A stretch of DNA of 52,868 nt from Candidatus Latescibacterota bacterium (lineage in GTDB: Bacteria; Latescibacterota; UBA2968). The DNA lies in assembly GCA_022822565.1 (NCBI GenBank), contig JAJEAX010000047.1:1-52868 (forward strand), given 5' to 3'. Positions 2,201 through 49,144 of the stretch are shown here, piece after piece (the first letter of the stretch is position 1; the number at the start of each line of letters is the position of its first letter). The translations under genes were made by a program, and so were the position numbers. Below the pieces are notes generated by a model. The model was not told the DNA's origin and ran no database searches. It saw only the letters and a program-made list of their open reading frames with translations.

Positions 2201-2434
2201 ATGAAAACTGTGACTTTCACTGAATTTCGTCAGCATGCGGCGGCGTGTTTAAATGCCGTTGAACAGGGCGAGACGTTTCGTATCTTGCGGCACGGCAAGC
2301 CCGTCGCTGATCTAACGCCAATAAAAACAAGCAACTCCGTGCCTTCCTGGAAACGGTGTATTGAACCAATCACGCTAAAAGGTATTTCTGTTTCGGATAT
2401 GATAATGAAAGAAAGAGATGAGTACGGACGATGA
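2201..2434 (+). CDS. Phd/YefM-type antitoxin
   Basis: MKTVTFTEFRQHAAACLNAVEQGETFRILRHGKPVADLTP is a typical Phd/YefM N-terminus. The ATG follows AAGGAGG. Its stop overlaps the next start (ATGA). Confidence 0.8.
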   Translation: MKTVTFTEFRQHAAACLNAVEQGETFRILRHGKPVADLTPIKTSNSVPSWKRCIEPITLKGISVSDMIMKERDEYGR

Positions 2435-2853
2435 ATGCTTTTTTTGATTCTTCTGCCCTTGTCAAAAGATATGTTGAAGAAGATGGACGAGAAAGAGTCA
2501 TCAATATCTTTGAAGAGGCAAGTGCTATAGGGGTAAGTGTTATCTGTTTTCCCGAGGTTATTTCGGCATTTTGCAGATTACAGCGAGAAGGGAATTTGGA
2601 CAAACCTCAGTATGAGCGAATTAAAGGCGATATGATTGCCGATTTTGAAGACTTCTTTATTTCTTCGATTACCCCACAAGTAAGAGGGTGTGTTACACGT
2701 CTTTTAGAGACATATTCTTTGCGTGCTATGGATGCACTGCACCTCGGAAGTGCTATTGAATGGCAAGCTGATACCTTTGTTTCGGGAGATAAACGTCAGA
2801 TTATTGCAGCTCAAAATGAAGGATTAGATGTACTGGATGTCCAAGATGAATGA
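2431..2853 (+). CDS. vapC: PIN-domain ribonuclease toxin (VapC family)
   Basis: MNAFFDSSALVKRYVEE.. carries the first acidic PIN residue. ..SLRAMDALHLGSAI.. and ..FVSGDKRQ.. are conserved PIN blocks. The gene is translationally coupled to the antitoxin. Confidence 0.85.
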   Translation: MNAFFDSSALVKRYVEEDGRERVINIFEEASAIGVSVICFPEVISAFCRLQREGNLDKPQYERIKGDMIADFEDFFISSITPQVRGCVTRLLETYSLRAMDALHLGSAIEWQADTFVSGDKRQIIAAQNEGLDVLDVQDE

Positions 2854-2934
2854 GGTTTTTTCCCTACTCTTTTGACTTTGCTTTATTTTTCTTTTTTCAC
2901 GTCACTTTTACCGAAACCCAACAGGAGGCAAGCG

Positions 2935-3504
2935 ATGGACGTTTTGGAAGCCATTCACACGCGGCGCACAATTTTTAAGTTCAAACCGGGCGGTGTGCCC
3001 AAAGATGTGATTGAAAAAATTTATGAAGCCGGTCTATGGGCACCCAATCACCATTTGACAGAACCGTGGCGATTTGTCGTCTTAGGAGAAGATACCAAAG
3101 AAATACTGGCGCAACGCTACAGCGAAATTCAGGAGGAAAAAGCCGCTGAAGGTGCCAGCGACGAGGCCAGGCGAATATTAAAAGAAGCCGGTTATGCCAA
3201 GTTCATGTCAAAGCCCACAATTATTGCGGTGGCGTGTTTGCAAGATGGCGATGAAATCAAGAACAGAGAAGATTATGCAGCCGCGTGTTGCGCCATGCAA
3301 AATGTACAGTTAGCAGCCTGGGCAGAAGGGGTTGGCATGCAGTGGAGCACAGGGCCGATTACACTGGAAGAAAACACCTACAAATTGTTGGGTGTAGATA
3401 CCGGCAGCGAATACATCATCGGATTTTTCTATACCGGGTATCCCGATGAAATTCCAGAACCGAGGCGGAAACCCCTCGAAGAAGTGCTGAGCTGGACGGA
3501 TTGA
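2935..3504 (+). CDS. nitroreductase family protein
   Basis: MDVLEAIHTRRTIFKFKP..GLWAPNHHLTEPWRFVV is the nitroreductase signature. ATG at 2935 follows AGGAGG. Confidence 0.85.
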   Translation: MDVLEAIHTRRTIFKFKPGGVPKDVIEKIYEAGLWAPNHHLTEPWRFVVLGEDTKEILAQRYSEIQEEKAAEGASDEARRILKEAGYAKFMSKPTIIAVACLQDGDEIKNREDYAAACCAMQNVQLAAWAEGVGMQWSTGPITLEENTYKLLGVDTGSEYIIGFFYTGYPDEIPEPRRKPLEEVLSWTD

Positions 3505-3515
3505 CTCCGCTAACC

Positions 3516-4301
3516 ATGAATGGTTTTGAATTTTTCGTCCTCTATCGCCTGCCCTATCTCGCAGTCCCTTTCTATCTCATCATGTTGAGCGTGCGGATAT
3601 GGGTATGGATGCGGTTTTACAACCCCGCGCTCAAGCTATTGCCACGAGCCAGAGGATCTGTGTATGGCGTATGGAAGCGGCAATACCGGCCAACCATTCA
3701 CATTTTTCCCGGATCGCGCTCACAAAGGACAGAATGGAAGCGCGCGATAAAGGGCTTTGTTTTTTTTACTGGTCTCTACAAGCGTGACAAAGTGCTGTGG
3801 ATGGGTTCCTGGTCGCTTCATTTGGGACTGTTGCTGGTAATTGTTGCCCATGCCCGCGTGATTTTGCCGCTTAATCTGGATCTGATCTGTTTGCGCATCG
3901 CATTGATCGGCAGTGGACTGATGACCGTGTCGGGCACTTATTTGTTGCTGCGTCGCATAATCATTCAGCGCGTGCGGGAAATTACGGACTTTCGGGACTA
4001 TCTGGCGGAATTCATCCTCCTGTCTTTTTCTTTAACAGCATTTCTCGTGATGTTAGACGGTGGCGTGTCATCCGAAGCCCTGCGCCACTATGTATCTGGG
4101 CTGTTGATGAACACAGTGGAAGTTATTGAAGTGCCAGACATGTTTGTCTGGCACATGCTCGCCGCCCAGCTATTGTTGATTGTGATCCCATTTTCTCATC
4201 TGTTGCATCTGGGCGGAATTTTTTTCAGTCGCGAATTTCTGGGCACGTCCGATACATTTGCTGGAGAGTTTGGATCGGGATTAAAAGATAGACGGAATTA
4301 A
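3516..4301 (+). CDS. NarI/DsrM/HdrE-like di-haem b membrane subunit (nitrate reductase gamma-like family)
   Basis: About 5-6 hydrophobic helices with conserved His positions (WSLHLGLLLVIVAHARV; FSHLLHLGGIFF). It lies immediately upstream of a CCG-domain Fe-S protein. The start could instead be TTG 3501, which overlaps the nitroreductase stop. Confidence 0.7.
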   Translation: MNGFEFFVLYRLPYLAVPFYLIMLSVRIWVWMRFYNPALKLLPRARGSVYGVWKRQYRPTIHIFPGSRSQRTEWKRAIKGFVFFTGLYKRDKVLWMGSWSLHLGLLLVIVAHARVILPLNLDLICLRIALIGSGLMTVSGTYLLLRRIIIQRVREITDFRDYLAEFILLSFSLTAFLVMLDGGVSSEALRHYVSGLLMNTVEVIEVPDMFVWHMLAAQLLLIVIPFSHLLHLGGIFFSREFLGTSDTFAGEFGSGLKDRRN

Positions 4302-4305
4302 ACGA

Positions 4306-5640
4306 ATGGAACGAGAAAAAAAATATATTCCACCAGGTCTGGCGGGCACGTATATGCGGCGCATTGCCGAATCGGATCCGTTTGTCCGCGAGATTCAGGA
4401 TGAACCATCTGCATTGCGCCTGTACATGGATACGTGTACCAAATGCGGGGTGTGCGCGCAGGAATGCCCGGTGTATTACGGGCAGCCCGATAAGCGTATG
4501 CATCCGGTGGAACGCTCCCGGCAAGTGATTCGTTTATACAAAAAGTACACGACATTTTGGGGGCGATTTTGGAATGCCATTTTTCCAAAGCCCGATTTTG
4601 AAAATAACGATGCCGAGTTATTTGCCGAGCGCATGTATGAGTGTTTGACATGCCGGCGATGTGCGGCATTTTGTCCTGTGGGAATCGATCATTCGGTGAT
4701 CTCGCGCGTTGGACGTTCGCTTGTCGATTTAATGGGTTTGACGCCGCCATCCCTGGCGCAGGGTACGCACAATTCATTTGAAACAGGCAATTTGGAAGGC
4801 GCGTCAGTTGAGGCATTTTTGGATGCGATTCAATTTATCGAAGAAGAACTCAAAGAAGAAACGGGACGAGATATTGCCATTCCCTTAGACCGCGAAGGCG
4901 CGGAAATTTTCTTTTTGCCACCTTCGGGCGATGTGCTGGTTTATGCTGAAAACTTAATGGGTATGGCAAAAATTTTTCACGCCATCGGTGCCGATTGGAC
5001 GATGAGCTCGCGGGCTTATGACGGATCGAATTTCGGATTTACGACCGGCAATAACTTTTCGATGAAGTACGAGAACAAGCACTACATTGACGCATGCGAA
5101 AAATTGGGATGTAAACTCATGGTGATGGGCGAATGCGGACATGCGTATCGGGTAATGAAGTTCATGGCCAGCGAAGGGCAGTGGTGGGGCACATTGCCTT
5201 TTGAGATTACCAGTGGGTTTGAATATACGGCACAACTTATTCGCACGGGCAAACTAAAATTGGACCCGGGCAAAAATCCAGATGTCGTGACCTATCACGA
5301 CGCTTGCCAATTTGCTGCCGGCTGTGGGATTGTTGAGGAACCCAGAGAGATTTTGAAAGCAACCTGCGCCGATTATCGCGAAATGCCCGATGGCGGGTAC
5401 ACACAGTGGTGTTGTGGTGGCGGCGGCGGATTATCGGCACTGCGCTCGGTGCGCGCGTTTCGGATGGAAATCTCGGGTAAAAAGAAAGCAGAGCAAATGC
5501 GCGAGACCGATGCGAAGATCGTATCAACTTCGTGTTTGCAGTGCCGCACACAATTAAAAGAAATCGCGCGCCATCACAAAATGCCCTTGCAAATTACAGG
5601 TGTACACGAGTTGGTAAACAATGCGATTGTACTGGAATAG
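4306..5640 (+). CDS. HdrD/DsrK-like Fe-S oxidoreductase with CCG domains
   Basis: Two ferredoxin-type motifs are present (CTKCGVCAQECP; CLTCRRCAAFCP), plus Cys-rich CCG-type segments (ECGHAYR, YHDACQFAAGCG, WCCGGGGG, STSCLQC). Confidence 0.8.
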   Translation: MEREKKYIPPGLAGTYMRRIAESDPFVREIQDEPSALRLYMDTCTKCGVCAQECPVYYGQPDKRMHPVERSRQVIRLYKKYTTFWGRFWNAIFPKPDFENNDAELFAERMYECLTCRRCAAFCPVGIDHSVISRVGRSLVDLMGLTPPSLAQGTHNSFETGNLEGASVEAFLDAIQFIEEELKEETGRDIAIPLDREGAEIFFLPPSGDVLVYAENLMGMAKIFHAIGADWTMSSRAYDGSNFGFTTGNNFSMKYENKHYIDACEKLGCKLMVMGECGHAYRVMKFMASEGQWWGTLPFEITSGFEYTAQLIRTGKLKLDPGKNPDVVTYHDACQFAAGCGIVEEPREILKATCADYREMPDGGYTQWCCGGGGGLSALRSVRAFRMEISGKKKAEQMRETDAKIVSTSCLQCRTQLKEIARHHKMPLQITGVHELVNNAIVLE

Positions 5641-5650
5641 CCAATAGCTC

Positions 5651-6844
5651 ATGTCTGATTTAATTTACATGGACAACGCGGCGACGACGTTTCCAAAACC
5701 TCCCAATGTGCTGGAAGACGCGCTGGCATTTTATCGAAAATACGGGGTAAATCCCGGACGTAGTGGCACGGACCTCGCGCGAGAGGCCGAGGCGATGGTT
5801 GCCGAAGCGCGTGCATCGCTCGCGGCGTTTTTTGGAGCTACGGACAATCCCGACCGGCTTGTGTTTACACACAATGCCTCGGATGCGTTGAATATTGCGA
5901 TTCAGGGTACATTAAAATCCGGCGATCACGTCATTACAACGCTTCTGGATCACAATTCGGTTTTGCGCCCGATTTATCACCTCTCAAAATACGAGGGAAT
6001 TGAAGCTACTTATGTAGGCTTTGGGGCAGATGGTTTTATAGACCCCGAGGATATTGATAGGGCGATCCGACCAAATACAAAACTCGTGGTGATGACCCAT
6101 GCATCCAATGTACTCGGCACAGTGCAGCCCGTAGCAGCAGTTGGCTCAGTCTGCCGCGCACGCGGTATCATTTTCTGCGTTGATGTGGCGCAAACAGCGG
6201 GCATGTTGCCCATCGATATGGAGGCGATGCAGGCCGATATTCTGTGTTTTACCGGACACAAGTCACTCATGGGACCAACGGGTACTGGTGGGATGTACGT
6301 GCGCGAAGGGGTGACAATTGCACCGTTGCGATACGGTGGGACGGGCGTGCGGTCGGAGTATCCCGATCACCTGAGCGAGTATCCCTGGCGATTGGAGTGT
6401 GGCACGGGCAATCTGATGGGCATTGCAGGCCTGCTGTACGCGCAGAAATGGATGCAACGCGAAGGCGTGGAAAATATTCATGCACGCGAGATGGCTTTAT
6501 TCAAACAACTGGTCAATGGCCTGCGCGAAGTCGATGGCACCATTTTGTATTGCGCTGAAAATCACGATCAACACGTACCTGTACTATCGGTCAATATCGA
6601 AGGGATGACGGCGAATAACGTGGGTACATTGCTGGATGTAAAGTTCAATGTAGCAACACGCACGGGACTGCAATGCGCGCCAAAGGTACATGAAACCCTG
6701 GGTACGAAAGCCATAAAGGGTACGGTACGTATTTCACTGGGACCCTTCAATACCGAAGCGCAAATTGAGACTGTGATCGAGGGATTGAGCGATATTTCCA
6801 AACGGCACGGGCGAATAAAAGGTCAGGTGCGGAATGGCGTATGA
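5651..6844 (+). CDS. class V aminotransferase-fold cysteine desulfurase
   Basis: MDNAATTFPKP; PLP-lysine motif FTGHKSLMGPTGTGG; catalytic Cys loop ATRTGLQCAP. Confidence 0.85.
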   Translation: MSDLIYMDNAATTFPKPPNVLEDALAFYRKYGVNPGRSGTDLAREAEAMVAEARASLAAFFGATDNPDRLVFTHNASDALNIAIQGTLKSGDHVITTLLDHNSVLRPIYHLSKYEGIEATYVGFGADGFIDPEDIDRAIRPNTKLVVMTHASNVLGTVQPVAAVGSVCRARGIIFCVDVAQTAGMLPIDMEAMQADILCFTGHKSLMGPTGTGGMYVREGVTIAPLRYGGTGVRSEYPDHLSEYPWRLECGTGNLMGIAGLLYAQKWMQREGVENIHAREMALFKQLVNGLREVDGTILYCAENHDQHVPVLSVNIEGMTANNVGTLLDVKFNVATRTGLQCAPKVHETLGTKAIKGTVRISLGPFNTEAQIETVIEGLSDISKRHGRIKGQVRNGV

Positions 6845-12534: not shown

Positions 12535-15228
12535 CTATTTCAACTCAAAATCACTTGTGCCAACCGCGTGTCGTTCTACATCCCCATCTCGAATGGTCAC
12601 AAACGCCGATGTCCGAATCTGCAATTGCACTGTGCCCTCAATCTCCCGAAGCGGAAAAAAGCAATGCACCGCCCCCGTATTTGTAATGCGAAAACCGGGA
12701 TCGTCTTCGAGAATGACATGCTCACCCTCCATGCGTTGAACGCGCAATCCGCGCGTTGTGCCATCGCCAAATGTCACTACGGCAACAGCACCATCTATAT
12801 TACCCATTTCAGGCGTACCATTCACGACCAGTGCATGATACGGCGCACCATCCTGTATTCGCAACACATCTGTAACCTGCCCCGTATAAATACCTCCGCC
12901 TGTTAATTGAGCGGTCTGCCATTGCACCTTCTCTCCACCCCATAAACCCATAATTCGCGCCTCACCATCCTGTTCGCGCACAAAACCGACTTCACCTTGA
13001 AAAGTGAGATCGCCCCTGTGCAAGACTTCTGTCCCAGGTTGTAGAACAATATGGTCTGTAACCCCCCGGTGGCGCACTTTCATATACACACCGCGCTCGC
13101 CAATATCCTCTACCTCAACAGAATCGACAAATGCCTGGCCTTGAAACGGTTCGTGAATAGCGAGAAACCGACTCGGCGCTCTACCTTTTTGCCGAACCAT
13201 CAACATGGGCATGCGAAAGTGATCGAGCAGCGGTTCATCTTCGTCTGCGCGTCGCACAGAAGGCGCGTCACCCACAAAAAGTTCGCTATCCATTAACCCC
13301 ATAAGATGAATACGCACGGCAACAGCATCATTTCCCTGAAAGGTGACACGCGCATCCTCTGCACGATCGCTATGCAACACATTCTGGAAAAATGCAAGCG
13401 CGACATTCCGTCCCTCTGCATCCCCCCGGTCGCGTTCGTGTTCTGGAAACCGCACCTTCACACCCGGCAAAAGGTTTTCGCCATAGTCCTGCAAAGGCAC
13501 ACTGACCTCTGCCCGCATATCACCATCCGCGCTTCCGTGCATCACCCAATCACGCTGATCGCCGCCCCGCACGCGAAATACGTCAACCACATAGTGATCT
13601 TCTCCCCCCGCATTTACAAGCATAACGAATCGTCGATATTCTTCGGCAAGTCCGGGATATACACCCTCCCCACTCGCTTCCACCCATTGCACCGCGTCAT
13701 AAGCGGCTTCAAAAGCCAGTAGAGAACCGTCTGTTATGTCCCTCCTATCGATGTGCTGCTCTTTTTCATTGATCAATACGGTATTGTGACACAAGGTGCT
13801 CGCTGCCCAGCTTCGGTATCGGGTATGGGTATAGCCCACATCGGAGAGCAATTCCTGCCCTTTGGCAAAAAGCATCAGATTCAAATTGTCCGCATGGGCA
13901 TGCCCATAAGCCCCCGAAAAATGCAGATGTACCTGTATTTGATGTTCGCCCTTTCCCTTCCCTAACCATGCATGCCCAACACCCGGCAGCAATGTCGGAT
14001 ACGACTGTTCAAGCGGTTTGACATTGGGATCGACCCGTCGGCTATCCAACCGCGCCCAAGCATCGTGCATGGGAATCCATCGCCCATCTGGATATCTGCA
14101 AATATCCAGAAGCCGATTTGCCTTTTTCACAATATCAATATCTCGTTCCAAATCGAGATTGTCGTATCGCACGCCATCGTCCGACACATAGCCCAACGGA
14201 TCGGAATACCCTTTCAGCGCGTCAAATACGCCCTGCATACCGGCCATTGTCATCCGGTGGTACCCCAAACTGCCTTCATGCCAGAATCCATCCGCATAAA
14301 ATTGACGCTCAAACAGCCCCATACTACGTCGAACCGCTTCATGCACAAGTTCTGGATCGCCCAAAACGCGACCAATCACCGCATATCCGACGTAAATTCG
14401 GGGGCTTGCATTGCCATAAGTAATCTCTTGAAAACCTTCCTGGCGAATGGTCCCACGAAAAAAATCGTCCTCAATCCGCTGCTTGACATCGGTCCCACTC
14501 GCATCGGACAACCGCTCCAATTCACCACTCGTATAAATCGCATCATAAGCCATAGCCAGATTGGTCGGCATTTCATCAGCACGCCACCGACCCCACTTTC
14601 CCCCAAAATTTGGATAGGGCGGTTCAAACACAAAACCCTTTTGTTCGTGTGCCCGATCATAACTCACCAGAAAACCCGGATAATACTGCGCGAATGCGTC
14701 CAGAATCAATACCGCACGCCGCGCATACGTCGCATCGCCAGTTGCCTGGTATAATTGCCCCAAATCTTCCGCAATCGCCGCAAAATACACGCGCGCTTCC
14801 CGCCACGCCTTTGCTCGAAAATAATATCTAAAGCCCGTCTCATCTTCCCAAAATGGATATGTCACCGTCTCCCCCACCGGGTTGACGACCGTCAGCACCT
14901 GGTCATCGGGATACGTCTCATTGGGAAATACCATCTCGCAATACCGACACTGCACGCGATGAGGATCTTTAATCGACCAGCGCAACTGCCCTTCCTGAGC
15001 ACCCGCATCACAATCGGGACATCCCACAAAACGAAATCCCGTCTTATTGGGGATCAACGCCACCATTTCCGCTTCGGAAAGCGCCATCACCGCTCGCACG
15101 CGCCGTTTCAAACGCGCGATTTCCTTCTCCGTTAAATTCACCTGATAAACCGGGCGTTTACTGGCTTGCATAGCCAACACTCCTGTGAAAATTTGTATTA
15201 TAATTAAAAAAAGAATACGTATTGACAT
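12535..15228 (-). CDS. heparinase II/III-like polysaccharide lyase family protein with an N-terminal Cys4 zinc-ribbon-like segment
   Basis: The signal/anchor is MSIRILFLIIIQIFTGVLA. GCPDCD..(18 aa)..CRYCE is a Cys4 segment. The central alpha/alpha toroid-like region contains DAFAQYYPGF, and the Hepar_II_III-like block is GYGHAHADNLNLMLF..HNTVLINEKEQ. Confidence 0.75.
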   Translation of the reverse strand: MSIRILFLIIIQIFTGVLAMQASKRPVYQVNLTEKEIARLKRRVRAVMALSEAEMVALIPNKTGFRFVGCPDCDAGAQEGQLRWSIKDPHRVQCRYCEMVFPNETYPDDQVLTVVNPVGETVTYPFWEDETGFRYYFRAKAWREARVYFAAIAEDLGQLYQATGDATYARRAVLILDAFAQYYPGFLVSYDRAHEQKGFVFEPPYPNFGGKWGRWRADEMPTNLAMAYDAIYTSGELERLSDASGTDVKQRIEDDFFRGTIRQEGFQEITYGNASPRIYVGYAVIGRVLGDPELVHEAVRRSMGLFERQFYADGFWHEGSLGYHRMTMAGMQGVFDALKGYSDPLGYVSDDGVRYDNLDLERDIDIVKKANRLLDICRYPDGRWIPMHDAWARLDSRRVDPNVKPLEQSYPTLLPGVGHAWLGKGKGEHQIQVHLHFSGAYGHAHADNLNLMLFAKGQELLSDVGYTHTRYRSWAASTLCHNTVLINEKEQHIDRRDITDGSLLAFEAAYDAVQWVEASGEGVYPGLAEEYRRFVMLVNAGGEDHYVVDVFRVRGGDQRDWVMHGSADGDMRAEVSVPLQDYGENLLPGVKVRFPEHERDRGDAEGRNVALAFFQNVLHSDRAEDARVTFQGNDAVAVRIHLMGLMDSELFVGDAPSVRRADEDEPLLDHFRMPMLMVRQKGRAPSRFLAIHEPFQGQAFVDSVEVEDIGERGVYMKVRHRGVTDHIVLQPGTEVLHRGDLTFQGEVGFVREQDGEARIMGLWGGEKVQWQTAQLTGGGIYTGQVTDVLRIQDGAPYHALVVNGTPEMGNIDGAVAVVTFGDGTTRGLRVQRMEGEHVILEDDPGFRITNTGAVHCFFPLREIEGTVQLQIRTSAFVTIRDGDVERHAVGTSDFELK

Positions 15229-15229
15229 T

Positions 15230-16522
15230 TTAATTTTCACTCTCATCCAAACGCGCGCGAAACCCGGGCAAAAGAGCTGTTACCAGAGCCGTTGCAACCA
15301 TGGCGATACTGGTGTGTAAACCGAGGGCAAAAGGCGCGCCATAGACTTCGGTGAGTTTGCCAATTTGCAGGCTACCAAGCGGTCCTGCGCCAATGGCGAG
15401 GACAAGTGTACCCATTGCGCGATCTCTCATATCATCTCGGGCAGCGATAAGCATAATTGAGCTTTGCATCACAGTAAAAAATGCATGCCCCAGGCCAGCA
15501 AGTATGAGGAGAAAGATGGCGAGTGGAAAGGCAACCGACGTGCCGAACAGGGTGAGTGCACCAACCCAGGACGTGCTAAAGGCAAAGACAAACAGCGCAA
15601 GAGACTGGAAAAGCGATCCAGCGGAAAATATCCAGCCGCGACTGAGGCGCGAGCGCAATATATTAACCGCGTAAAGGCCAAAAAACGCCCCAATACCATT
15701 GCACGCGCCCAGCACACCGTATTCAAGTGGCCCCTTGTGAAGAATATCGTGTGTAAAAATGGGCAGGATGGTCTGGTAGGGAAACGCCAGAAAATTCATG
15801 ATCACAGTAATGAGTAGCGTACCCATAATCGGCTGGCTGGTACGTATGTATTGCAAGCCTTCGCGCATCAGCGTCCACGGAGAGGTTTTGAGAATCGCGG
15901 GATGACGCGGCACTTTGACGCGCAGCATGATCAGGAATGAAATAAGGGAAATAAAAAAAATAGTGATATAACAGTCCAGTACGCCAAATAAAGCGTAAAT
16001 ATATCCGCTTAAAAAAGGCCCAATCATGCGAGCGATATTTTGGGTAACGCTTTCGAGCATCATCGCTTCAACCGTGCGCTGCTTGCCGACCAGATCGGGT
16101 ACCAGGGCGCGACGAGCAGTCCAGTTGAGAGACCACGAGATGCCAAATAACACTGCGCCAACCGCAAGATGCCAGAATGCCAGCCGGTTGGTCCAAATCA
16201 GTAGGCCAATCATTGCGAGGACCAGTACGCTGAGCCACTGCGAGAAAATCACGATACGAATGCGCCCAACGCTATTGATCAATGGGCCAGCGATAAAACC
16301 GATGAGCAACAGGGGAATAGATCGGTAAAAGCCAATCAGTGCGACGTCAAACGCAGAGTGGGTAATCTCAAAAACGAGCCATCCCACGACAATCATTTCC
16401 ATCCACATGGCCTGCCACCAGAGCATATTGCTCAGGATCAGGTAGCGAAAGCCGCGATTGCCCAGGGGAGCAAGGGACCCTCGAAAGGAGATGACAAATT
16501 TTCCCGTTCTTCTAATGCGCAT
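15230..16522 (-). CDS. MFS transporter
   Basis: About 12 hydrophobic helices and a typical MFS loop between TM2 and TM3. The substrate is unknown. Confidence 0.75.
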   Translation of the reverse strand: MRIRRTGKFVISFRGSLAPLGNRGFRYLILSNMLWWQAMWMEMIVVGWLVFEITHSAFDVALIGFYRSIPLLLIGFIAGPLINSVGRIRIVIFSQWLSVLVLAMIGLLIWTNRLAFWHLAVGAVLFGISWSLNWTARRALVPDLVGKQRTVEAMMLESVTQNIARMIGPFLSGYIYALFGVLDCYITIFFISLISFLIMLRVKVPRHPAILKTSPWTLMREGLQYIRTSQPIMGTLLITVIMNFLAFPYQTILPIFTHDILHKGPLEYGVLGACNGIGAFFGLYAVNILRSRLSRGWIFSAGSLFQSLALFVFAFSTSWVGALTLFGTSVAFPLAIFLLILAGLGHAFFTVMQSSIMLIAARDDMRDRAMGTLVLAIGAGPLGSLQIGKLTEVYGAPFALGLHTSIAMVATALVTALLPGFRARLDESEN

Positions 16523-16588: not shown

Positions 16589-17161
16589 TTACCGCCCAAT
16601 CTCAAAATTACGCGCCACGGCCCGTGCCATGGTCACGAGAACATCGCTGTCGATGCGCTCGCGATAATTGGGATTAATATATTGAAATTGGATCTTGCGA
16701 TTGGGTGCTATCACAAAGACCGATGGCACGGGCAAAGCACGTCTTCTGTTATTCATAAACGCAACACCATAAGCCTTTGCCGCTTCAAATTCCACATCCG
16801 ATAATAGCGTAAACTCGAGGCCCACTCGATCGCGCACCTCAGCCAATTTTTCAGGTGGGTCGGGCGCAATAGCAATAATTTCAAAACCCACCTCCTCCAA
16901 CTGTGACTTCAGTTCTTGCAGTTGTCCCAACTGCCGTCGGCAGTGCGGTCACCAGTATCCGCGATAAAAAACCAAAACCGTCGGCTTTTTGTGCGCACCC
17001 AGGTCAAAATCCCGCCCATTCGCATCGACGAGCGTCAGCGCGGGAACTTCATCGCCAACCATCAGGGGATGCACTTTATTGGGCGCATCGGGCAATTGCG
17101 CGTGCCCCCATCCAAAAGTACCAAACACCACCAGCAATGCGATCCAGATTGTTTTCTTCAT
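16589..17161 (-). CDS. secreted AhpC/TSA-redoxin (Prx-like) protein with in-frame UGA, a candidate selenoprotein (U-x-x-C)
   Basis: The two track ORFs (16949..17188 and 16589..16930) are in one frame, separated only by TGA at 16949-16951. Read-through gives VLVFYRGYW-U-PHCRRQL.., matching the FxRGxWCPxC redoxin motif. GAGGAG precedes ATG 17161, and the signal peptide is MKKTIWIALLVVFGTFGWGHA. Confidence 0.75.
16918..16951 (-). promoter_or_regulatory. UGA codon plus candidate bacterial SECIS hairpin
   Basis: On the mRNA: UGA-CCGCACUGCCGACG-GCAGUUG-GGA-CAACUGC. This is a perfect 7-bp stem starting 15 nt after the UGA, with a G-rich apical loop 22-24 nt downstream. Confidence 0.55.
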
Positions 17162-17191
17162 AAAAATCTCCTCTGTATTAAATGACAAACA

Positions 17192-18661
17192 TTACAATGA
17201 GAGAATCTTCTTGATCTTTCCCGGCTGCGCCCAGTTGCATTTCCCCTCTCCGTTGAGTTGTCTCAACAAAGTGGGAATACCAGGATGTTGAAGTGCAGAG
17301 CAAATCCGTTCTGCATCGGCTCTGTTCCAACAAGGGATAAACGCCTGCATCGCTTGATTCGCCTGCCACACCTGTCCTTCCACACTGTTTAAGATCACCG
17401 GATGAAAGTTACTCTTACCATACGCCTCCCAAATAACCTTATAAGGTGCAAAAGAATACGGACCAACGCCGAGCAGTGACCACCAGACGCCTTTGGCAAT
17501 GGCAGATCGGATCAAGGTACCTCTCCGATCTTCAAGTTTGTCTCTAACCGCAATGAGATATTGTCTCAGTTCAGCATATTGCTCAATACTGGCCCACGAA
17601 AGCGGTCGTCCTGTATTTCTATTGTATGGAAGCAAAATCCATTTATGCGGGACCAGATCCCCATTCTTCCATATCTCCTTTGTCGCAAGCGGAAAGAGAA
17701 ATTCCTCAGGCAGATGAGTTGGTTTATCCTCGAACATAAAAATCGCATTCGCGCCACAAGTATTTACGCCCTGACGCGGTTTCTGGTCAGGATATAATTC
17801 AACATTTATGGTGCTATCGAGATCAGCAGTATCTCCACGTTGAAGAACGCGCCATTGATCGTCAGATGCCTTGAGAGGAACCGCACGGTGTTCGATCCAC
17901 TCATCACTGCGCTCTTTGAAATATCTGACGGGGAATTTATGCGGCACATCCATGCGAAACCTGGCGCAGCAATAAGATGTACCTACCCCCCCGAACACCT
18001 CTGTCGCGGTAAACTCACAGACCTCATCCACCGCAAATCTCCGATGGTTCGCAATATAGTCTCTGAATCCCCTGTGAGCATCACCTGAGAAGAGAGAAAG
18101 TGGTACATAGAAACACCCTATCCCATTCTTCCGCAGTAAATTACCCAGTACGACCTTCAAAACCAGAGCCGCTATATCGGTGCGCGAAGTGCCGAGAAGA
18201 ACCTGTTTTTTATCGGGAACCAGGCCTTCTGCCACAAAATAAGGTTTGAGTCTCTCCTTATATGAATCGGACAAATCCGTAAAATTTGCCCATGGTGGGT
18301 TGCCAAACAAGATGTCGTACTCGGCATTTGGAGGATCTGTAATCACATCTAATGCGAGAAGTTGCGATGAGGGAAAATCAATCGCGAATTTCCGATACGC
18401 TTTAAGTTGAAATGCCTGAAGATGTGACGCACGGACCTCGATCAAAGTCAGCCGAGAAAGAAGCTCTGGCGACACCCGAACACCTCTCGACCTGGCGAGA
18501 CGGAATAGCGCGAGCGCGAAAGCACCCTGTCCTGCAGTCGGGTCACAAACAGACGCCCCATCAATCCACGCATCGAAAATACCCCACCGCTTGATAAGCC
18601 ATTCTGCCCATTTAATCGGAGTAAAGACCTGCCAGACCTCAACATTCTGGAAATCATCCAT
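17192..18661 (-). CDS. gamma-class N6-adenine DNA methyltransferase (TaqI/Eco57I-like), no adjacent endonuclease
   Basis: AdoMet motif I is VCDPTAGQGAFALA. Catalytic motif IV is FGNPPWANF. The motif order I then IV places it in the gamma class. Confidence 0.8.
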   Translation of the reverse strand: MDDFQNVEVWQVFTPIKWAEWLIKRWGIFDAWIDGASVCDPTAGQGAFALALFRLARSRGVRVSPELLSRLTLIEVRASHLQAFQLKAYRKFAIDFPSSQLLALDVITDPPNAEYDILFGNPPWANFTDLSDSYKERLKPYFVAEGLVPDKKQVLLGTSRTDIAALVLKVVLGNLLRKNGIGCFYVPLSLFSGDAHRGFRDYIANHRRFAVDEVCEFTATEVFGGVGTSYCCARFRMDVPHKFPVRYFKERSDEWIEHRAVPLKASDDQWRVLQRGDTADLDSTINVELYPDQKPRQGVNTCGANAIFMFEDKPTHLPEEFLFPLATKEIWKNGDLVPHKWILLPYNRNTGRPLSWASIEQYAELRQYLIAVRDKLEDRRGTLIRSAIAKGVWWSLLGVGPYSFAPYKVIWEAYGKSNFHPVILNSVEGQVWQANQAMQAFIPCWNRADAERICSALQHPGIPTLLRQLNGEGKCNWAQPGKIKKILSL

Positions 18662-19078: not shown

Positions 19079-20485
19079 CTAGGAAGTTCTAAGCCTCTGT
19101 ACTTCTCGTAATGCATGAATTCGATCCGTATCGCCGGGATCGCTGGCTTCTTCCATCAGTTCGCGCATCTTCGCCTCCAGGCTCTCCCGCAGGGCAGCAT
19201 GTTCGGGATCATCAACTAGGTTTTTCATCTGATAGGGATCCACTTGGTTGTCATACAGCAGCCAAGGGCCGTGGTCGAAGAGATAGGCGTAGGTGTGACG
19301 CATCGTGCGGACGCCTCGCCACGGGGTGATGGCATTCTCGTGAACTCCACCGTGCACCAGCTTCATGAGGAGCAACGCATCCCGGTTATCGGAAGATTCA
19401 CCCCGCATCGCGTTGGACATATCCTCTCCATCCGTCTCTGGACACTCGATGCCCGCAAGCGCCAGAAGCGACGGCATCAGGTCAATGGGGGCGATCAGAG
19501 CGTCACTGCGTCCTCCGGCTGGCACCTTTCCCGGGTATTCGACCAGGAACGGAACCCGAATCGATTCCTCGAAGGGGCTGTTCTTCTGAATCATCCAATG
19601 GCTTCCGATCATATCCCCATGGTCTGAGGTGAACACCAGGATCGTATCATCAGCAAGGTTTGCCTTCCTGAGTGACTCACGTATCCTGCCGACATAATCA
19701 TCCAACGCTGCCGTGTGTGCGTAGTATCCCTGAAGAGCTTCCTTCAGCCGATCATTATTGTCGAGGATGGCACGGCGCATCTCTCGTTTGACCGCCGTTT
19801 CCTCGTCCGGTTCATCCCGCTCCATTAGATGATCAATCACCTCTCTCTCAGCCACATTCTCTCGCAGCTCGATGCGGTCCAGCGAGATCCTTTCCCTGTA
19901 CTCCTCGGGAACCTGGTCATACGGGTCGTGAGGCGGTCCCCAGGAAACAAACAAGCAGAACGGCCGATTCTGGTTCTCTTCGATGAAGTCGATTGCCAGA
20001 TTGGTCTGGATCGCTGCATCATAGCCTTCGAAGTGGATTTCCTCGGGCGTCTCCGTGCAGTAGAAGTGATCCATGTATTGGTGGGTACAGTTGTTTACAG
20101 CCCAGTATTCGAACCCCTGGCGCCGTTCCCTCGGAACGAATGGGTCCCGATTCGATTCCAGGTGCCACTTGCCAATGTACCCAGTGTAGTAACCTTGGGA
20201 TTTGAACGCTGTCGCAATGGTCGGGAGATCATCCCGCATGCCCGTGTCGTTGCTCACCGTTCCATTCGCCATTGGATACCTTCCGGTGAGCAGCATGGCA
20301 CGATACGGCGAACAGAGGGGATAGATACTGATCATGTTGTCCAGCACCACTCCCGAAGCTGCCATTTCGTCCAGATGTGGCGTATGTACGAATGTATTGC
20401 CGTAGCAACCCAGGACGTGCGCACGCATCTGGTCCGCAAAGATAAAAACGATGTTGGGAAGTCTTCCCTCATTCTGGCTGTTCAT
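19079..20485 (-). CDS. Cys-type sulfatase (S1 family), no signal peptide
   Basis: RLPNIVFIFADQMR and the formylglycine motif CSPYRAMLLTGR are present, followed by GKWH and SDHGD. The N-terminus MNSQNEG lacks a hydrophobic leader. Confidence 0.9.
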   Translation of the reverse strand: MNSQNEGRLPNIVFIFADQMRAHVLGCYGNTFVHTPHLDEMAASGVVLDNMISIYPLCSPYRAMLLTGRYPMANGTVSNDTGMRDDLPTIATAFKSQGYYTGYIGKWHLESNRDPFVPRERRQGFEYWAVNNCTHQYMDHFYCTETPEEIHFEGYDAAIQTNLAIDFIEENQNRPFCLFVSWGPPHDPYDQVPEEYRERISLDRIELRENVAEREVIDHLMERDEPDEETAVKREMRRAILDNNDRLKEALQGYYAHTAALDDYVGRIRESLRKANLADDTILVFTSDHGDMIGSHWMIQKNSPFEESIRVPFLVEYPGKVPAGGRSDALIAPIDLMPSLLALAGIECPETDGEDMSNAMRGESSDNRDALLLMKLVHGGVHENAITPWRGVRTMRHTYAYLFDHGPWLLYDNQVDPYQMKNLVDDPEHAALRESLEAKMRELMEEASDPGDTDRIHALREVQRLRTS

Positions 20486-25604: not shown

Positions 25605-27059
25605 TTATTTATTCACCCACCAACCGCTATAACGGCTGGTACTGGATACGAGCCAATCATCCAGAGCTCGCTCTAGACGGCGGCGTGTTTCCCCATGGCC
25701 GGGGTCATCCCACAGATCCACCTGTTCATTCGGATCCGATTCGAGATCGAACAGCTGTCCCTCGCCCTTCCCCCGATAATCAACCAGCTTGTAGCGTTCT
25801 CCTCGCACCATATAGAGGTAGCCGATATCCTGAAGCATTGGGTCCGGTGCGTGTTCCGAGAAGACATACTGACGTTGATCCGTTTCTCCATCACCTTCCA
25901 TGAAGGGTAGCAGGCTCTTTGCCTCCATAGGGTAAGCCTGCTTCGCACCAGCCAACTCCAAGACCGTCGGACCGATATCAAACCATTGTGTCAGGGCCTC
26001 GACAACCCGGTTTCCCTGATATCGTTCAGGTGCCCACACCACCAGCGGCACACGCACGGAGGAATCGTACATATTCCACTTCTCTACCAGGCCGTGGTCG
26101 CCCAGGCAGTCTCCATGGTCGGAAGTGAAGATCACCACAGAATTGTCCAACATGCCGCGCTGTTCCAGCGCAGCCAGAATCCGACCGACCTGCTCATCAA
26201 TCATCGTCACATTGGCCAGATAGTAAGCCCGCTGCCGCTGCCGCTGTTCGTCCGAGGCCAGCGGATCAAAGTCGATCGAGTCGGCTTTGCGTTCCTCAAT
26301 GCGAGCCCGGAGGGATTTTAGCGTTTCCGGTTGTCCGTCCATCTCTGCTTCAGTTACTGGCATGATGTTCAGATCGCGCTCCAGATAGGAATCGGCATAG
26401 TGCTCAATTGGATCGAAAGGAGGGTGAGGCCCCGGGAATCCGATCTGCAGGAAAAGCGGATCTTCCATCTCATCGGGAGCCTTCTTGATCCAGCGGAGTG
26501 CCAAATCGCCGACATAGACATCGGGGTGTAAGTCTTCGGGCAGTTTCCATTCAAAGCAACCCTGCCGCTCTCGAGAATCAGGCCAAGCGATGTAGTCCGG
26601 TTTCTCCGGACGTTCAAACCCCCGTGCGGCTAGGGCCTTGTCCCATTCGTCGTCGAAAACGTGCGGGTTGCCGGTCCAGAACGGCTCGGCTAAACGGCGT
26701 TGTTTGTTCTCCACCACAAACCGTTCGTGGAACCCGTGCATGTGACTGTAGGGATCGGCATGCATTTTGCCGACGTTGACGCAATAGTAGCCCGCCTCTC
26801 GGAGGTCCTGGACCCAGAGCCGCGGCCAAGGGTCATTGTTGCGCTGAACTCCGCTGTTGTGCGGGAAGTGGCCCGTGAACAAACTGGCTCGCGATGGTCC
26901 ACAAGACGGTGCGGTCACATGACACTGGGAGAAGGCGACGCCTTCGGTGACCAGGCGATCGAGATGAGGTGTATCCACATGCGGGTACCCAAGCGCCCCG
27001 ATCGTTTCGTAGCGCTGCTGGTCGGTGATGATCAGAACTATGTTGGGTTGATCATTCAT
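25605..27059 (-). CDS. Cys-type sulfatase (S1 family), no signal peptide
   Basis: PNIVLIITDQQR, CGPSRASLFTG, GKMH and SDHGD motifs are present. Confidence 0.9.
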   Translation of the reverse strand: MNDQPNIVLIITDQQRYETIGALGYPHVDTPHLDRLVTEGVAFSQCHVTAPSCGPSRASLFTGHFPHNSGVQRNNDPWPRLWVQDLREAGYYCVNVGKMHADPYSHMHGFHERFVVENKQRRLAEPFWTGNPHVFDDEWDKALAARGFERPEKPDYIAWPDSRERQGCFEWKLPEDLHPDVYVGDLALRWIKKAPDEMEDPLFLQIGFPGPHPPFDPIEHYADSYLERDLNIMPVTEAEMDGQPETLKSLRARIEERKADSIDFDPLASDEQRQRQRAYYLANVTMIDEQVGRILAALEQRGMLDNSVVIFTSDHGDCLGDHGLVEKWNMYDSSVRVPLVVWAPERYQGNRVVEALTQWFDIGPTVLELAGAKQAYPMEAKSLLPFMEGDGETDQRQYVFSEHAPDPMLQDIGYLYMVRGERYKLVDYRGKGEGQLFDLESDPNEQVDLWDDPGHGETRRRLERALDDWLVSSTSRYSGWWVNK

Positions 27060-44640: not shown

Positions 44641-46242
44641 CTATTCGGATCTTTCAATTTTGTCAGGGGGGATCTCGACCGGATGCCGATAGCCCCTACG
44701 TGCAATGATATTATCCCAGGGCTGGACCTCGCACCGTTTCTCCCAGGCCTGAAAAATGGCCTCCAATTCCTCGACCACTTCAGGATGGACTGCGGCCAGG
44801 TCGCTCAATTCAGTGCGGTCGGCTTCAATATCATACAGTTCCCACTCGTGGAGGTAGTCGCGAACCAGCTTCCACTTTCCTTTCCGCACGGCGCAGTTGC
44901 CTTCGTGTTCCCAAATGAGGTGATCCTTCCCATTGTCCCAGTCATGGAAAATGGGGACCAGACTGGTACCTTCCATCGGAAGAATTTCATTCCCATTGTA
45001 GGTGTCCGGATAGTCGGCGCTTGCGACCTCCACGCACGTGGCCATAATATCGGTCAGTTGGCCGGGCTGGTGGCGCAAAACACCCTTATCGGCAATGTGA
45101 TCGGGCCAGTGTACAATCAAAGGCGTGGAAATGCCTCCTTCATGGACCCAGTGTTTGTACCGGCGAAAAGGCGTGTTGGACACATTGGCCCAGGGCACGC
45201 CGTAGCTCTGAAAGGTATCTTCCGGGCCTGGCATAACCCAAGGATCGTTTACGCTCGCGACAAAACGACCCTCTCTTGTAGTCTGCTGCTTGATTTCTAC
45301 CTTTCCGCCGAGTTCTTCGGCGCATCCCCCGTTGTCGGCCAGAAAAAGAATAAGCGTATTCTCCAACTGACCCGTTTCTTCCAGTGCCTGGACAATACGG
45401 CCAATGCCCTGGTCCATCCGGTCAATCTGAGCCGCGTACACTTCCATCCGCCGTTGTTGCCAGACCTTATGCTCCGCTTCTTCCCAGGGAACCTGTGAAG
45501 GGTCACGTTCGCTCAATGCCCACGCGTCTTTGATAATGCCCATCTTGCGCATGCGCTGCAATCGCTCATCACGCAACTGATCCCACCCGGCCGCAAAACG
45601 CCCTTCGTATTTTTGAATATCCTCACGGTGTGCATGAAGGGGCCAGTGGGGCGCAGTATAAGCCGTATAGATGAAAAAAGGCCTATCGGGTTGTACCCCG
45701 GCATGGGACCGAATATAGTCGGCTGCCTGATCGCTGATGGCGTCCGTCAAAAAGAAATCTTCCGGGAACTGATCCAGTGAAATCTGCGTGTTATCGCGGG
45801 TCAGAGATGGATTCCAGTAATGGGCAAAGCCCCCCAGAATGCCAAAATAGTGATCGAAACCACGCCCGCAGGGCCAGCTGTGTTTGGGACCGTCCGGTTC
45901 AAGATGCCGTGTAACATGCCACTTCCCGCTCATGTAAGTGGAATATCCGGAAGACTTCAAAACTTCTGCAATCGTAACGCTACGCAAGTTGAGATCCCCT
46001 CGATAGCCGTCGTAATCAAAATCGTCCGTCATATGTCCCACACTGGCCTGGTGGGGATGGAGGCCAGTCAGTAGAGAGGCGCGGGTAGGACAGCATCGGG
46101 CGGTATTGTAAAACTGTGTGAACCGAAGGCCGTTTGCAGCCAGCCGGTCCAGATTGGGCGTCTGGACTTCGCCGCCATAGCAGCCCAGGTCAGAATAGCC
46201 CATATCGTCGTCTAAAATGATCAGAATATTAGGTCTGGACAT
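44641..46242 (-). CDS. Cys-type arylsulfatase (S1 family), no signal peptide
   Basis: MSRPNILIILDDDMGYSDLGCYG, CCPTRASLLTG, GKWH and ADNGG motifs are present. GGGAG precedes ATG 46242. The 110-aa upstream extension in the track runs through the repeated promoter region and is rejected. Confidence 0.9.
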   Translation of the reverse strand: MSRPNILIILDDDMGYSDLGCYGGEVQTPNLDRLAANGLRFTQFYNTARCCPTRASLLTGLHPHQASVGHMTDDFDYDGYRGDLNLRSVTIAEVLKSSGYSTYMSGKWHVTRHLEPDGPKHSWPCGRGFDHYFGILGGFAHYWNPSLTRDNTQISLDQFPEDFFLTDAISDQAADYIRSHAGVQPDRPFFIYTAYTAPHWPLHAHREDIQKYEGRFAAGWDQLRDERLQRMRKMGIIKDAWALSERDPSQVPWEEAEHKVWQQRRMEVYAAQIDRMDQGIGRIVQALEETGQLENTLILFLADNGGCAEELGGKVEIKQQTTREGRFVASVNDPWVMPGPEDTFQSYGVPWANVSNTPFRRYKHWVHEGGISTPLIVHWPDHIADKGVLRHQPGQLTDIMATCVEVASADYPDTYNGNEILPMEGTSLVPIFHDWDNGKDHLIWEHEGNCAVRKGKWKLVRDYLHEWELYDIEADRTELSDLAAVHPEVVEELEAIFQAWEKRCEVQPWDNIIARRGYRHPVEIPPDKIERSE

Positions 46243-46514
46243 ACCATCTCCCTTATTCAATCTTCTAATCCCGAAAACCAGGTCCCCCTTCCCGATTCGC
46301 TCAGCACCCGCAGCGTCACCAGGGAAGTCGCCTGACGGCAGGGGCGCCGTTACGAATGACGTCTTTGATCTGGGCACAGAAGGGATCCGGGATCCGCACT
46401 GGCTTCTAGTTTCCGCTGCGAGCCACCCAAAAGGCGTTGCGAAGGTTTCAGATGTACTTGACGTCGGCTCTGGGGATTTGCTAGAGTTATATCGCCGCAA
46501 TCCGTCAGGAAAAG

Positions 46515-46873
46515 CATTGAGTGAACACGATACAGATTTCTTCTTGGTTTCTAACCATCTATAAAATATCATGGTAGAAGAAAGATAATTCTGGACAATT
46601 GATAAAAAAAATAGAAAATTTAAATAGAAAAAATGAGAAAATAAAATAGATCAGATTCAAGCTGGAGACCGATTTGATCTGTCTCCGCTCCCTGGTCGCA
46701 AATGATGGTGACTTGCCTGAACTCCCGAGAACGTCAGTGATGAGCTACACCAGCGCAGATCAGTCACACCCCTATGCGCACCGGTTCATTGACTTCATCC
46801 TCGAACGTATGAAGGACAGCTTTAAGGTGAACAAGGATGTTTCATTTGGTGAAAGAAACGGAGTGCCGGAATC
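46515..46873 (+). pseudogene. promoter/lysR cassette copy D: lysR with a large internal deletion and an early stop
   Basis: 46515-46700 aligns to the cassette 5' part (ATG AGA AAA TAA at 46633, then KLETDLICLRSLVA). It is fused at 46701 to the last ~57 lysR codons (DLPELPRTSVMSYTSADQSHPYAHRFIDF..). Confidence 0.8.
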
Positions 46874-47478: not shown

Positions 47479-47946
47479 ATGCAGCAGAAATTCATGGGCA
47501 GAGCCATAGAACTCTCCCGGATTCATATGAGGGCGGGAGCAGGAGGCCCATTCGGTGCGGTCATCGTCAAGGAAGGAAAAATTATTTCGGAGGGATATAA
47601 TGAGGTGATCTCCAGCAAAGACCCCACAGCCCACGCGGAAATCATGGCCATCAGAAAGGCGACATTCAAGCTCGACACCTTCCACCTCGCGGGATGCGAA
47701 ATCTACACCAGTTGCGAACCCTGTCCCATGTGTCTCGCCGCCATCTACTGGGCCAGAATCGAAAAAATTTATTTCGCCAATACCGCTGAAGACGCCAGGG
47801 ATATTGGATTCGACGACAACGCCTTTTACCAGGAATTACAACGGCCATGGGACAAACGCCAAATCCCCTCCCAGCAATTGCTGCGCGATCAGGCATTAGC
47901 GGTCTTCAAGGAGTGGCAAAAAAAGGTGGATCGCATTGAATACTAA
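47479..47946 (+). CDS. guaD: guanine deaminase (CDA-fold, GuaD type)
   Basis: GGPFGAVIVKEGKII..DPTAHAEIMAIRKA..CEPCPMCLAAIYWARI..GFDD closely follows the ~156-aa Bacillus GuaD pattern. AAGGAGG precedes the ATG. Confidence 0.8.
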   Translation: MQQKFMGRAIELSRIHMRAGAGGPFGAVIVKEGKIISEGYNEVISSKDPTAHAEIMAIRKATFKLDTFHLAGCEIYTSCEPCPMCLAAIYWARIEKIYFANTAEDARDIGFDDNAFYQELQRPWDKRQIPSQQLLRDQALAVFKEWQKKVDRIEY

Positions 47947-49143: not shown

Positions 49144-49144
49144 T

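Follow-up and report, generated by a model that had tools for sequence, protein, structure and literature searches.

How should a redoxin gene be read when its frame carries a stop codon in place of the first catalytic cysteine? The question is raised by positions 16589..17161 on the minus strand of contig JAJEAX010000047.1 (GenBank assembly GCA_022822565.1), a stretch of 52,868 nucleotides (nt) from a Candidatus Latescibacterota bacterium that is called the window hereafter. A preliminary description, made from the letters alone, had proposed a selenoprotein at this site. Our analysis leads to the same answer: the locus is very probably an intact Latescibacterota gene for an exported redoxin of the AhpC/TSA fold, in which UGA codon 71 would be translated as selenocysteine (Sec, U) within a thioredoxin (Trx)-type U-P-H-C motif. 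The features on which this reading draws are as follows.

16589..17161, minus strand: predicted complete selenoprotein gene for an exported peroxiredoxin (Prx)-like (AhpC/TSA-fold) thiol:disulfide oxidoreductase with U71-P-H-C74 (translation, Pfam, orthologues, substitution rates)
17168..17174, minus strand: Shine-Dalgarno sequence AGAGGAG, 6-7 nt upstream of the ATG (sequence; conserved among orthologues)
17096..17161, minus strand: predicted signal peptide of the Sec-translocon type, MKKTIWIALLVVFGTFGWGHA followed by Q (KK n-region, hydrophobic core, small-x-small GHA; judged by eye)
16949..16951, minus strand: in-frame UGA at codon 71, probably read as Sec (alignment to the invariant Cys of WCPxC; TGA retention)
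16940..16942, minus strand: codon for Cys74, the putative resolving partner in UxxC (structure-based alignment to 2cx3; invariant column)
16918..16934, minus strand: core hairpin GCAGUUG-GGA-CAACUGC of a candidate bacterial Sec insertion sequence (bSECIS), 7 base pairs (bp) with a 3-nt loop (conservation, synonymous entropy, covariation, RNAalifold)

Between 17161 and 16589 the minus strand carries one 190-codon frame whose sole interruption is the TGA at 16951..16949. Its read-through product, running from MKKTIW through VFYRGYW, the UGA and PHCRRQLGQLQ to EIGR, comprises 190 codons followed by a TAA stop. The preliminary description had stated that two open reading frames (ORFs) share one frame here and are split only by TGA, and on this the translation and the ORF listing (16949..17188, 79 amino acids; 16589..16930, 113 amino acids) agree; the ribosome-binding site that it noted is the AGAGGAG before the ATG. 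Read through, the product matches Pfam PF00578 (AhpC-TSA) over positions 1-123 of 124 (E=3.2e-28; 98.6 bits, cutoff 26) and the Redoxin family at E=1e-21. A hydrophobic N-terminus is common to the orthologues and to the cysteine-containing homologues, and it is from this kind of sequence pattern that export is predicted. A scan of the region for promoters and terminators gave nothing informative. That standard gene calling would break such a gene had also been anticipated, and some 38 close relatives in the databases (69-91% identity) are, every one of them, annotated as C-terminal fragments of 107 or 113 amino acids, with the same in-frame TGA present in the DNA behind these entries.

Alignment with nine full-length cysteine homologues places the UGA in the column of the invariant first Cys of W-C-P-x-C, as had been claimed from the motif FxRGxWCPxC, and the codon is TGC or TGT in all 62 homologues from other phyla (Bacteroidota, Acidobacteriota, Hydrogenedentota, Planctomycetota and others). 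Inspection of this codon in relatives, which the preliminary description had recommended, showed that the Latescibacterota orthologues all keep TGA. It is found in 18/18 Latescibacterota species among the GTDB species representatives (50-95% amino acid identity) and also in loci L002-L006, and each of 21 orthologues spanning the same range of identity has a single internal stop, which in every case is TGA at this codon, and no frameshift. These orthologues are 78-92% identical in nucleotide sequence and lie in differing gene neighbourhoods, and over some 16 kb the window is 88-92% nucleotide-identical to complete chromosomes deposited as Candidatus Latescibacterota. Ratios of nonsynonymous to synonymous substitution rates (dN/dS, NG86) are 0.21-0.33 in the mature N-terminal part and 0.17-0.21 in the C-terminal part, with dS saturated in the deepest pairs. 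Independent decay of the two halves, named beforehand as the outcome that would speak against a selenoprotein, was not seen: both are under purifying selection across the 21 orthologues. Elsewhere UGA is a normal stop in this organism, and the redoxin site a local exception, since TGA terminates 13 of the 36 long ORFs in the window; the long genes are intact under translation table 11.

The RNA downstream of the UGA is constrained as well. A perfect 7-bp stem, GCAGUUG-GGA-CAACUGC, is present as described, although it begins 14 nt after the UGA and not 15, with its loop 21 nt from the UGA and an energy of -8.8 kcal/mol in context. The published bSECIS consensus has a loop of 3-9 nt with a G in its first two positions, a stem of 4-16 bp, a UGA-to-loop distance of 16-37 nt and a minimum free energy (MFE) of -7.5 kcal/mol or lower (PMC13188914). 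With 7 bp, a GGA loop, 21 nt and, counting its flanks, -8.8 kcal/mol, the window hairpin agrees with this consensus in every respect, and it is conserved among the relatives that carry TGA, being identical and equally stable in 20/21 orthologues. Over the hairpin codons (76-81, CGG CAG TTG GGA CAA CTG) the summed synonymous entropy is 0.83 bits, compared with a mean of 0.84 bits for each single codon elsewhere, and none of 100,000 degeneracy-matched permutations was as low; the four codons immediately upstream vary freely. Like the elements of Escherichia coli fdhF and fdnG and those described by the bSECIS consensus, it is a stem-loop inside the ORF just 3' of the UGA, and it shares with the fdhF/fdnG type a small apical loop that starts with G-G/U at 16-37 nt from the UGA. 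In contrast to that type it is minimal (7 bp, 3-nt loop) and lacks an obvious lower stem and bulged U; compared with the general consensus its energy is barely at the threshold. A permissive Rfam scan of the hairpin region returned chance matches only (E ~3).

The peptide PHCRRQLGQLQ and the 20-nt core CGGCAGUUGGGACAACUGCA are identical between the window and loci L006 and L022-L024, whose proteins are about 50% identical and whose neighbourhoods differ. For a putative SECIS of only 7 bp, such a freeze across subclades is unusually strong.

Beyond the phylum, we scanned JGI metagenomes with the DNA pattern Y-R-G-x-W-TGA-P-x-C, which is independent of the sequence downstream. At least 120 stretches matched, and 117 of the 120 matches listed are redoxin-like genes with TGA at the same codon. 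Their downstream sequences are widely divergent and form different stems at the same offset. In an unsupervised search, the best hairpin had its loop 16 nt (43 sequences), 20 nt (17), 21 nt (27) or 24 nt (7) from the UGA, and the loops of the TGA forms start with AG or GG. Mean energies of the best hairpin were -7.9 kcal/mol in the TGA forms, -3.2 after codon shuffling and -2.4 at the same offset in 59 cysteine homologues, and the full consensus with a perfect stem was reached by 57/125 TGA forms as against 5/133 shuffled sequences and 3/59 cysteine homologues. In the 17 sequences that share the register of the window, 98.3% of cells are paired (15-51% when the 3' partner is slid), double compensatory changes occur in five of the seven pairs, and the covariation score is 0.528 versus 0.160 in shuffles (0/500 as high). 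RNAalifold places the consensus structure of these sequences exactly at the position of the GCAGUUG-GGA-CAACUGC hairpin. The unsupervised search is the unbiased test and the covariation an illustration, since the subset in the window's register was chosen for compatibility.

Loci L089-L208 thus hold three SECIS registers within one protein family: a 16-nt register with AGUUG or AGUUA loops and N-S-E-L-R-S peptides, a 20-21-nt register with GGN loops, and a 24-nt register with GGUC loops. This suggests either that the element arose several times independently or that it slid. Two further homologues bear on its fate. P0036 (L209:177-785), the closest cysteine form at 48% identity, has TGT at the Sec position but still forms a hairpin of 7 bp, GCAGCUG-AAA-CAGUUGC, at the same offset; the loop of this hairpin lacks G, and it may be a SECIS relic following a Sec-to-Cys conversion. 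P0075 (L210:2001-2492 and L211:205-696, two independent data sets from JGI and Logan) has TGG (Trp) at the Sec/Cys codon, giving FYRGYW-W-PYC, and keeps a SECIS-like hairpin, GCAGCU-GGUCG-AGCUGC; it looks like a one-base change of UGA to UGG that abolished the UxxC motif.

What kind of redoxin does the frame encode? Its closest solved structures are peroxiredoxins of the BCP type (2cx3, Aeropyrum pernix BCP, E=1.4e-13), followed by oxidoreductases of the ResA/TlpA type. In the alignment to 2cx3, C74 falls on the peroxidatic Cys, U71 on the Ser/Thr of Pxxx(T/S)xxC and R67 on the Pro, so that of this canonical Prx/BCP motif only C74 is matched. The active site is a Trx-type UxxC on a Prx scaffold, since Arg replaces Pro and Sec would replace Thr/Ser; the predicted Sec accordingly occupies the Thr/Ser position of PxxxTxxC, as the N-terminal residue of UxxC, and not the position of the peroxidatic Cys. 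No NCBIfam model reaches its own cutoff against the read-through product: the BCP equivalog scores 61.8 bits (cutoff 140), the SelL-related redox protein NF040769 48.9 (120), ResA 48.3 (170), TlpA 32.3 (230) and DsbE 17.2 (123).

The best match among known families is the Prx-like thiol:disulfide oxidoreductase with PF00578 and UxxC, which has been on the list of bacterial selenoprotein families since Kryukov and Gladyshev 2004 (PMC13188914), so that the family is not new, as the preliminary description had recognized. It occurs in Geobacter, Syntrophus and Desulfotalea (PMC1794560), and under the name "Prx-like 1", used in the Sargasso and GOS selenoproteomes, it accounts for 225 sequences in the GOS set (PMC2398784). 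The members of this family, whose function is predicted only, have the AhpC/TSA fold, a Sec that comes first in UxxC and aligns to the CxxC of abundant cysteine homologues, and an in-ORF bSECIS hairpin right after the UGA. At the window locus we find PF00578 extending across the UGA, the U on the redox Cys, a hairpin of bSECIS form and TGA retention with intact flanks, and the gene probably belongs here, with subfamily identity judged from the Pfam domain and the motif rather than from alignment with the type sequence WP_010940744.1. Unlike the known members, the Latescibacterota gene forms a subclade of its own with an invariant PHCRRQLGQLQ/SECIS sequence.

Cysteine forms of the PRX_like2 type, which we take to be cd02970, are the nearest relatives without a UGA. 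P0053 and P0076, which NCBI names "peroxiredoxin-like family protein", represent this UxxC/CxxC arrangement on a Prx scaffold; they share architecture, length and FYRG[YH]W-C-P-x-C with the window protein at 30-48% identity, usually with an N-terminal signal or hydrophobic segment. They differ in having Cys (TGC or TGT) at the Sec position and no hairpin there (mean -2.4 kcal/mol). BCP/PrxQ peroxiredoxins such as 2cx3 are structurally closest and align their peroxidatic Cys with C74, but carry Pxxx(T/S)xxC where the window protein has a Trx-like UxxC. The Sec-containing peroxiredoxin of the Eubacterium acidaminophilum type (TxxU) is a selenoprotein of the same Pfam family (PMC13188914) in which Sec replaces the peroxidatic Cys, whereas in the window protein the Sec would lie three residues upstream and the Cys at the peroxidatic position is kept. 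ResA, TlpA and DsbE are exported CxxC reductants of the Trx fold that work in a similar way, but the window protein is not a member of these families.

We hypothesize that, when a ribosome reaches the UGA, the hairpin 14 nt downstream inside the coding sequence acts as a bacterial SECIS and recruits SelB.GTP.Sec-tRNA(Sec), with the UGA being decoded in competition with RF2. Export of the full-length protein by way of the Sec translocon would follow. Once in the periplasm, U71 would attack as a nucleophile with its selenolate and C74 would resolve the selenenylsulfide, and the chemistry is most likely that of a periplasmic thiol:disulfide (or hydroperoxide) reductase.

Several observations weigh against the selenoprotein reading. 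Taken as bare 17 nt, without flanking nucleotides, the hairpin reaches -7.4 kcal/mol and just misses the threshold of -7.5; the stem of relative L002 is weakened (-5.7); the regional folding z-score, -0.69, is unremarkable; and RNAfold of the window sequence alone favours an overlapping hairpin (pair probabilities of ~0.01 for the conserved hairpin versus ~0.99). This overlapping hairpin, ACUGCC-GAC-GGCAGU, is the MFE structure in the window, and was rejected as a SECIS: its loop lies 10 nt from the UGA, and its stability falls from -7.8 to -2.8 kcal/mol in relatives. The significance of the GCAGUUG-GGA-CAACUGC hairpin comes from the comparative data and not from folding energy. These data have biases of their own. 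The Latescibacterota TGA loci were retrieved only through the peptide pattern PHCRRQLGQ, which favours finding the same hairpin; the hairpin is invariant within the phylum, so that covariation is known from distant family members only; and the 17 sequences of the covariation alignment were picked for register compatibility. Two database copies are damaged: P0049 lacks the C-terminal third and runs on into downstream sequence, and P0061, frameshifted in its N-terminal half, is joined to the upstream methylase ORF. This damage could be single-strain decay or assembly and indel errors.

The remaining observations on this side concern the decoding machinery, to which a selenoprotein would commit the organism. 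No tRNA, Rfam family or sel gene was detected in the window (ARAGORN, Rfam, and Pfam on about 40 ORFs), and neither selA, selB, selD nor tRNA-Sec was found in 22 Latescibacterota loci (ARAGORN, and tblastn with E. coli SelA, SelB and SelD), a search of loci rather than of whole genomes. When 421 kb of DNA from the phylum were scanned for a TGA with a hairpin, no second selenoprotein emerged, the candidates being shadow-frame artefacts; the other places in the window where TGA links ORFs of one frame (e.g., 2422-3504, PIN and nitroreductase) are adjacent separate genes. Across 206 loci, the same three E. coli queries gave a single clear match, a selD on the non-Latescibacterota locus L141, in addition to a weak SelA-like match on L110 and a weak GTPase-domain match on L061. 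A protein-database query with E. coli SelA was dominated by close kin, as the best 120 of 8,000 candidates were all Enterobacteriaceae. The L141 locus, by contrast, lends the Sec reading indirect support. On this locus (JGI contig Ga0181591_10010473), selD lies at 72-1160 on the minus strand, is 45% identical to E. coli SelD and has its own TGA at the known Sec site (SHGAG-U-ACK). About 2.5 kb away on the same strand, at 3672-3698, is a TGA-redoxin with UxxC and a hairpin of the window's class, GCAGCUC-GGU-GAGCUGC.

The alternative that survives best, though we consider it improbable, is that the UGA is recoded to a residue other than Sec: to Cys through a Cys-charged tRNA(UCA) and a SelB-like factor, or to Trp or Cys by near-cognate read-through stimulated by the hairpin. 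It would account for the lack of Sec machinery in the Latescibacterota loci examined and of another selenoprotein gene in the 421 kb, and the relative with TGG at the codon in two data sets is in keeping with Trp. Against it, the codon, its place on a redox Cys, the geometry of the hairpin and a loop that starts with G all match the canonical SelB-dependent system, and Sec is established for this protein family in cultured bacteria that decode it, such as Geobacter and Syntrophus (PMC1794560). Moreover, the family member on L141 neighbours a Sec-containing selD, and Cys inserted at UGA would offer no advantage over a TGC codon. Insertion of Sec rather than of another residue, with SelA, SelB, SelD and tRNA-Sec encoded elsewhere in the genome, is thus the reading that we prefer.

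Very improbable is a truly split gene, which would produce a secreted N-terminal peptide of 70 amino acids and a C-terminal protein of 113 amino acids from the TTG at 16930, acting separately or reassembling. A TTG start does exist at 16930 and the 113-amino-acid product is in the databases, yet this TTG lies inside the hairpin and has no Shine-Dalgarno sequence, and the C-terminal piece would lose the whole UxxC/CxxC motif, the first beta-alpha unit and the signal peptide. Neither the invariance of the TGA, which is never TAA or TAG, nor that of the hairpin would be explained.

A pseudogene, in which a Cys codon has mutated to TGA in a decaying redoxin and the hairpin is a coincidence of Q-L-G-Q-L codons, would fit the two fragments of the gene callers, the unexceptional regional folding energy and the isolated truncated and frameshifted copies. 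This explanation is effectively refuted, because the same TGA is retained in 21 orthologues across about 50% amino acid divergence, with dS saturated and no second lesion, and because dN/dS is about 0.2 on either side of the stop and synonymous sites are frozen exactly over the hairpin; cysteine homologues with similar xxLxxLQ peptides have no hairpins. Descent of all copies from one recently spread sequence is contradicted by their nucleotide divergence and different neighbourhoods. Finally, although many of the relatives are error-prone long-read metagenome-assembled genomes (MAGs), a sequencing or assembly error has a negligible probability given the identical TGA in more than 20 independent assemblies from various projects and technologies, as does a genome-wide code with TGA as a sense codon given the many long ORFs that TGA ends and the integrity of the long ORFs under table 11.

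Other parts of the window were noted in passing. A block of about 29 kb (18700-47400), between an Eco57I-like methylase gene (17192-18661) and a dCMP deaminase gene (47479-47946), contains three sulfatases (19079-20485, 25605-27059 and 44641-46572, minus strand), a TonB-dependent receptor with CarboxypepD_reg, an MFS_2 sugar transporter, DUF6785/DUF6784, FAA hydrolases, dehydrogenases and a LysR regulator. The methylase and deaminase genes are about 0.9 kb apart in relative L001, and the block looks like a variable island for the utilisation of sulfated polysaccharides. A radical SAM/SPASM protein (49094-50203, plus strand) is plausibly an anaerobic sulfatase-maturing enzyme and, together with the sulfatases and a heparinase II/III-like protein (12535-15246), is consistent with the anaerobic degradation of sulfated glycans. 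Elsewhere in the window, a plus-strand cluster at 2872-6844 holds genes for a member of the nitroreductase family, a membrane protein resembling NarI (Nitrate_red_gam), a Fer4/CCG protein similar to HdrD and an aminotransferase of class V (cysteine desulfurase/selenocysteine-lyase-like). This cluster is a membrane redox module for which no link to selenium emerged.

What is new here is the host lineage, together with the scale of mis-annotation; the family, motif and mechanism are established, and the understanding of selenoproteins is unchanged by the finding. Our literature search on Latescibacteria and selenocysteine brought up no account of Sec being used by this phylum. More tentatively, and with slightly less confidence than doubt, we suggest a joint reading of these data, in which the Latescibacterota are a Sec-decoding lineage that has retained, throughout the diversity sampled, a single exported UxxC selenoprotein whose 20-nt SECIS core is invariant in nucleotide sequence, the three registers reflect several independent Cys-to-Sec conversions, and Sec-to-Cys and Sec-to-Trp reversions left hairpin relics in P0036 and P0075. 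The three registers and the post-loss relics form a natural set of SECIS variants within one family, from which predictors of bacterial SECIS elements could benefit. In all of the Latescibacterota MAGs examined, as well as in at least 117 contigs from metagenomes, the gene is called as two fragments or as a pseudogene, and a conserved, probably periplasmic redox enzyme is thus missing from metabolic reconstructions of the phylum. More generally, the gene points indirectly to a need for selenium, and to an encoded machinery for Sec, in these polysaccharide degraders of soils and sediments.

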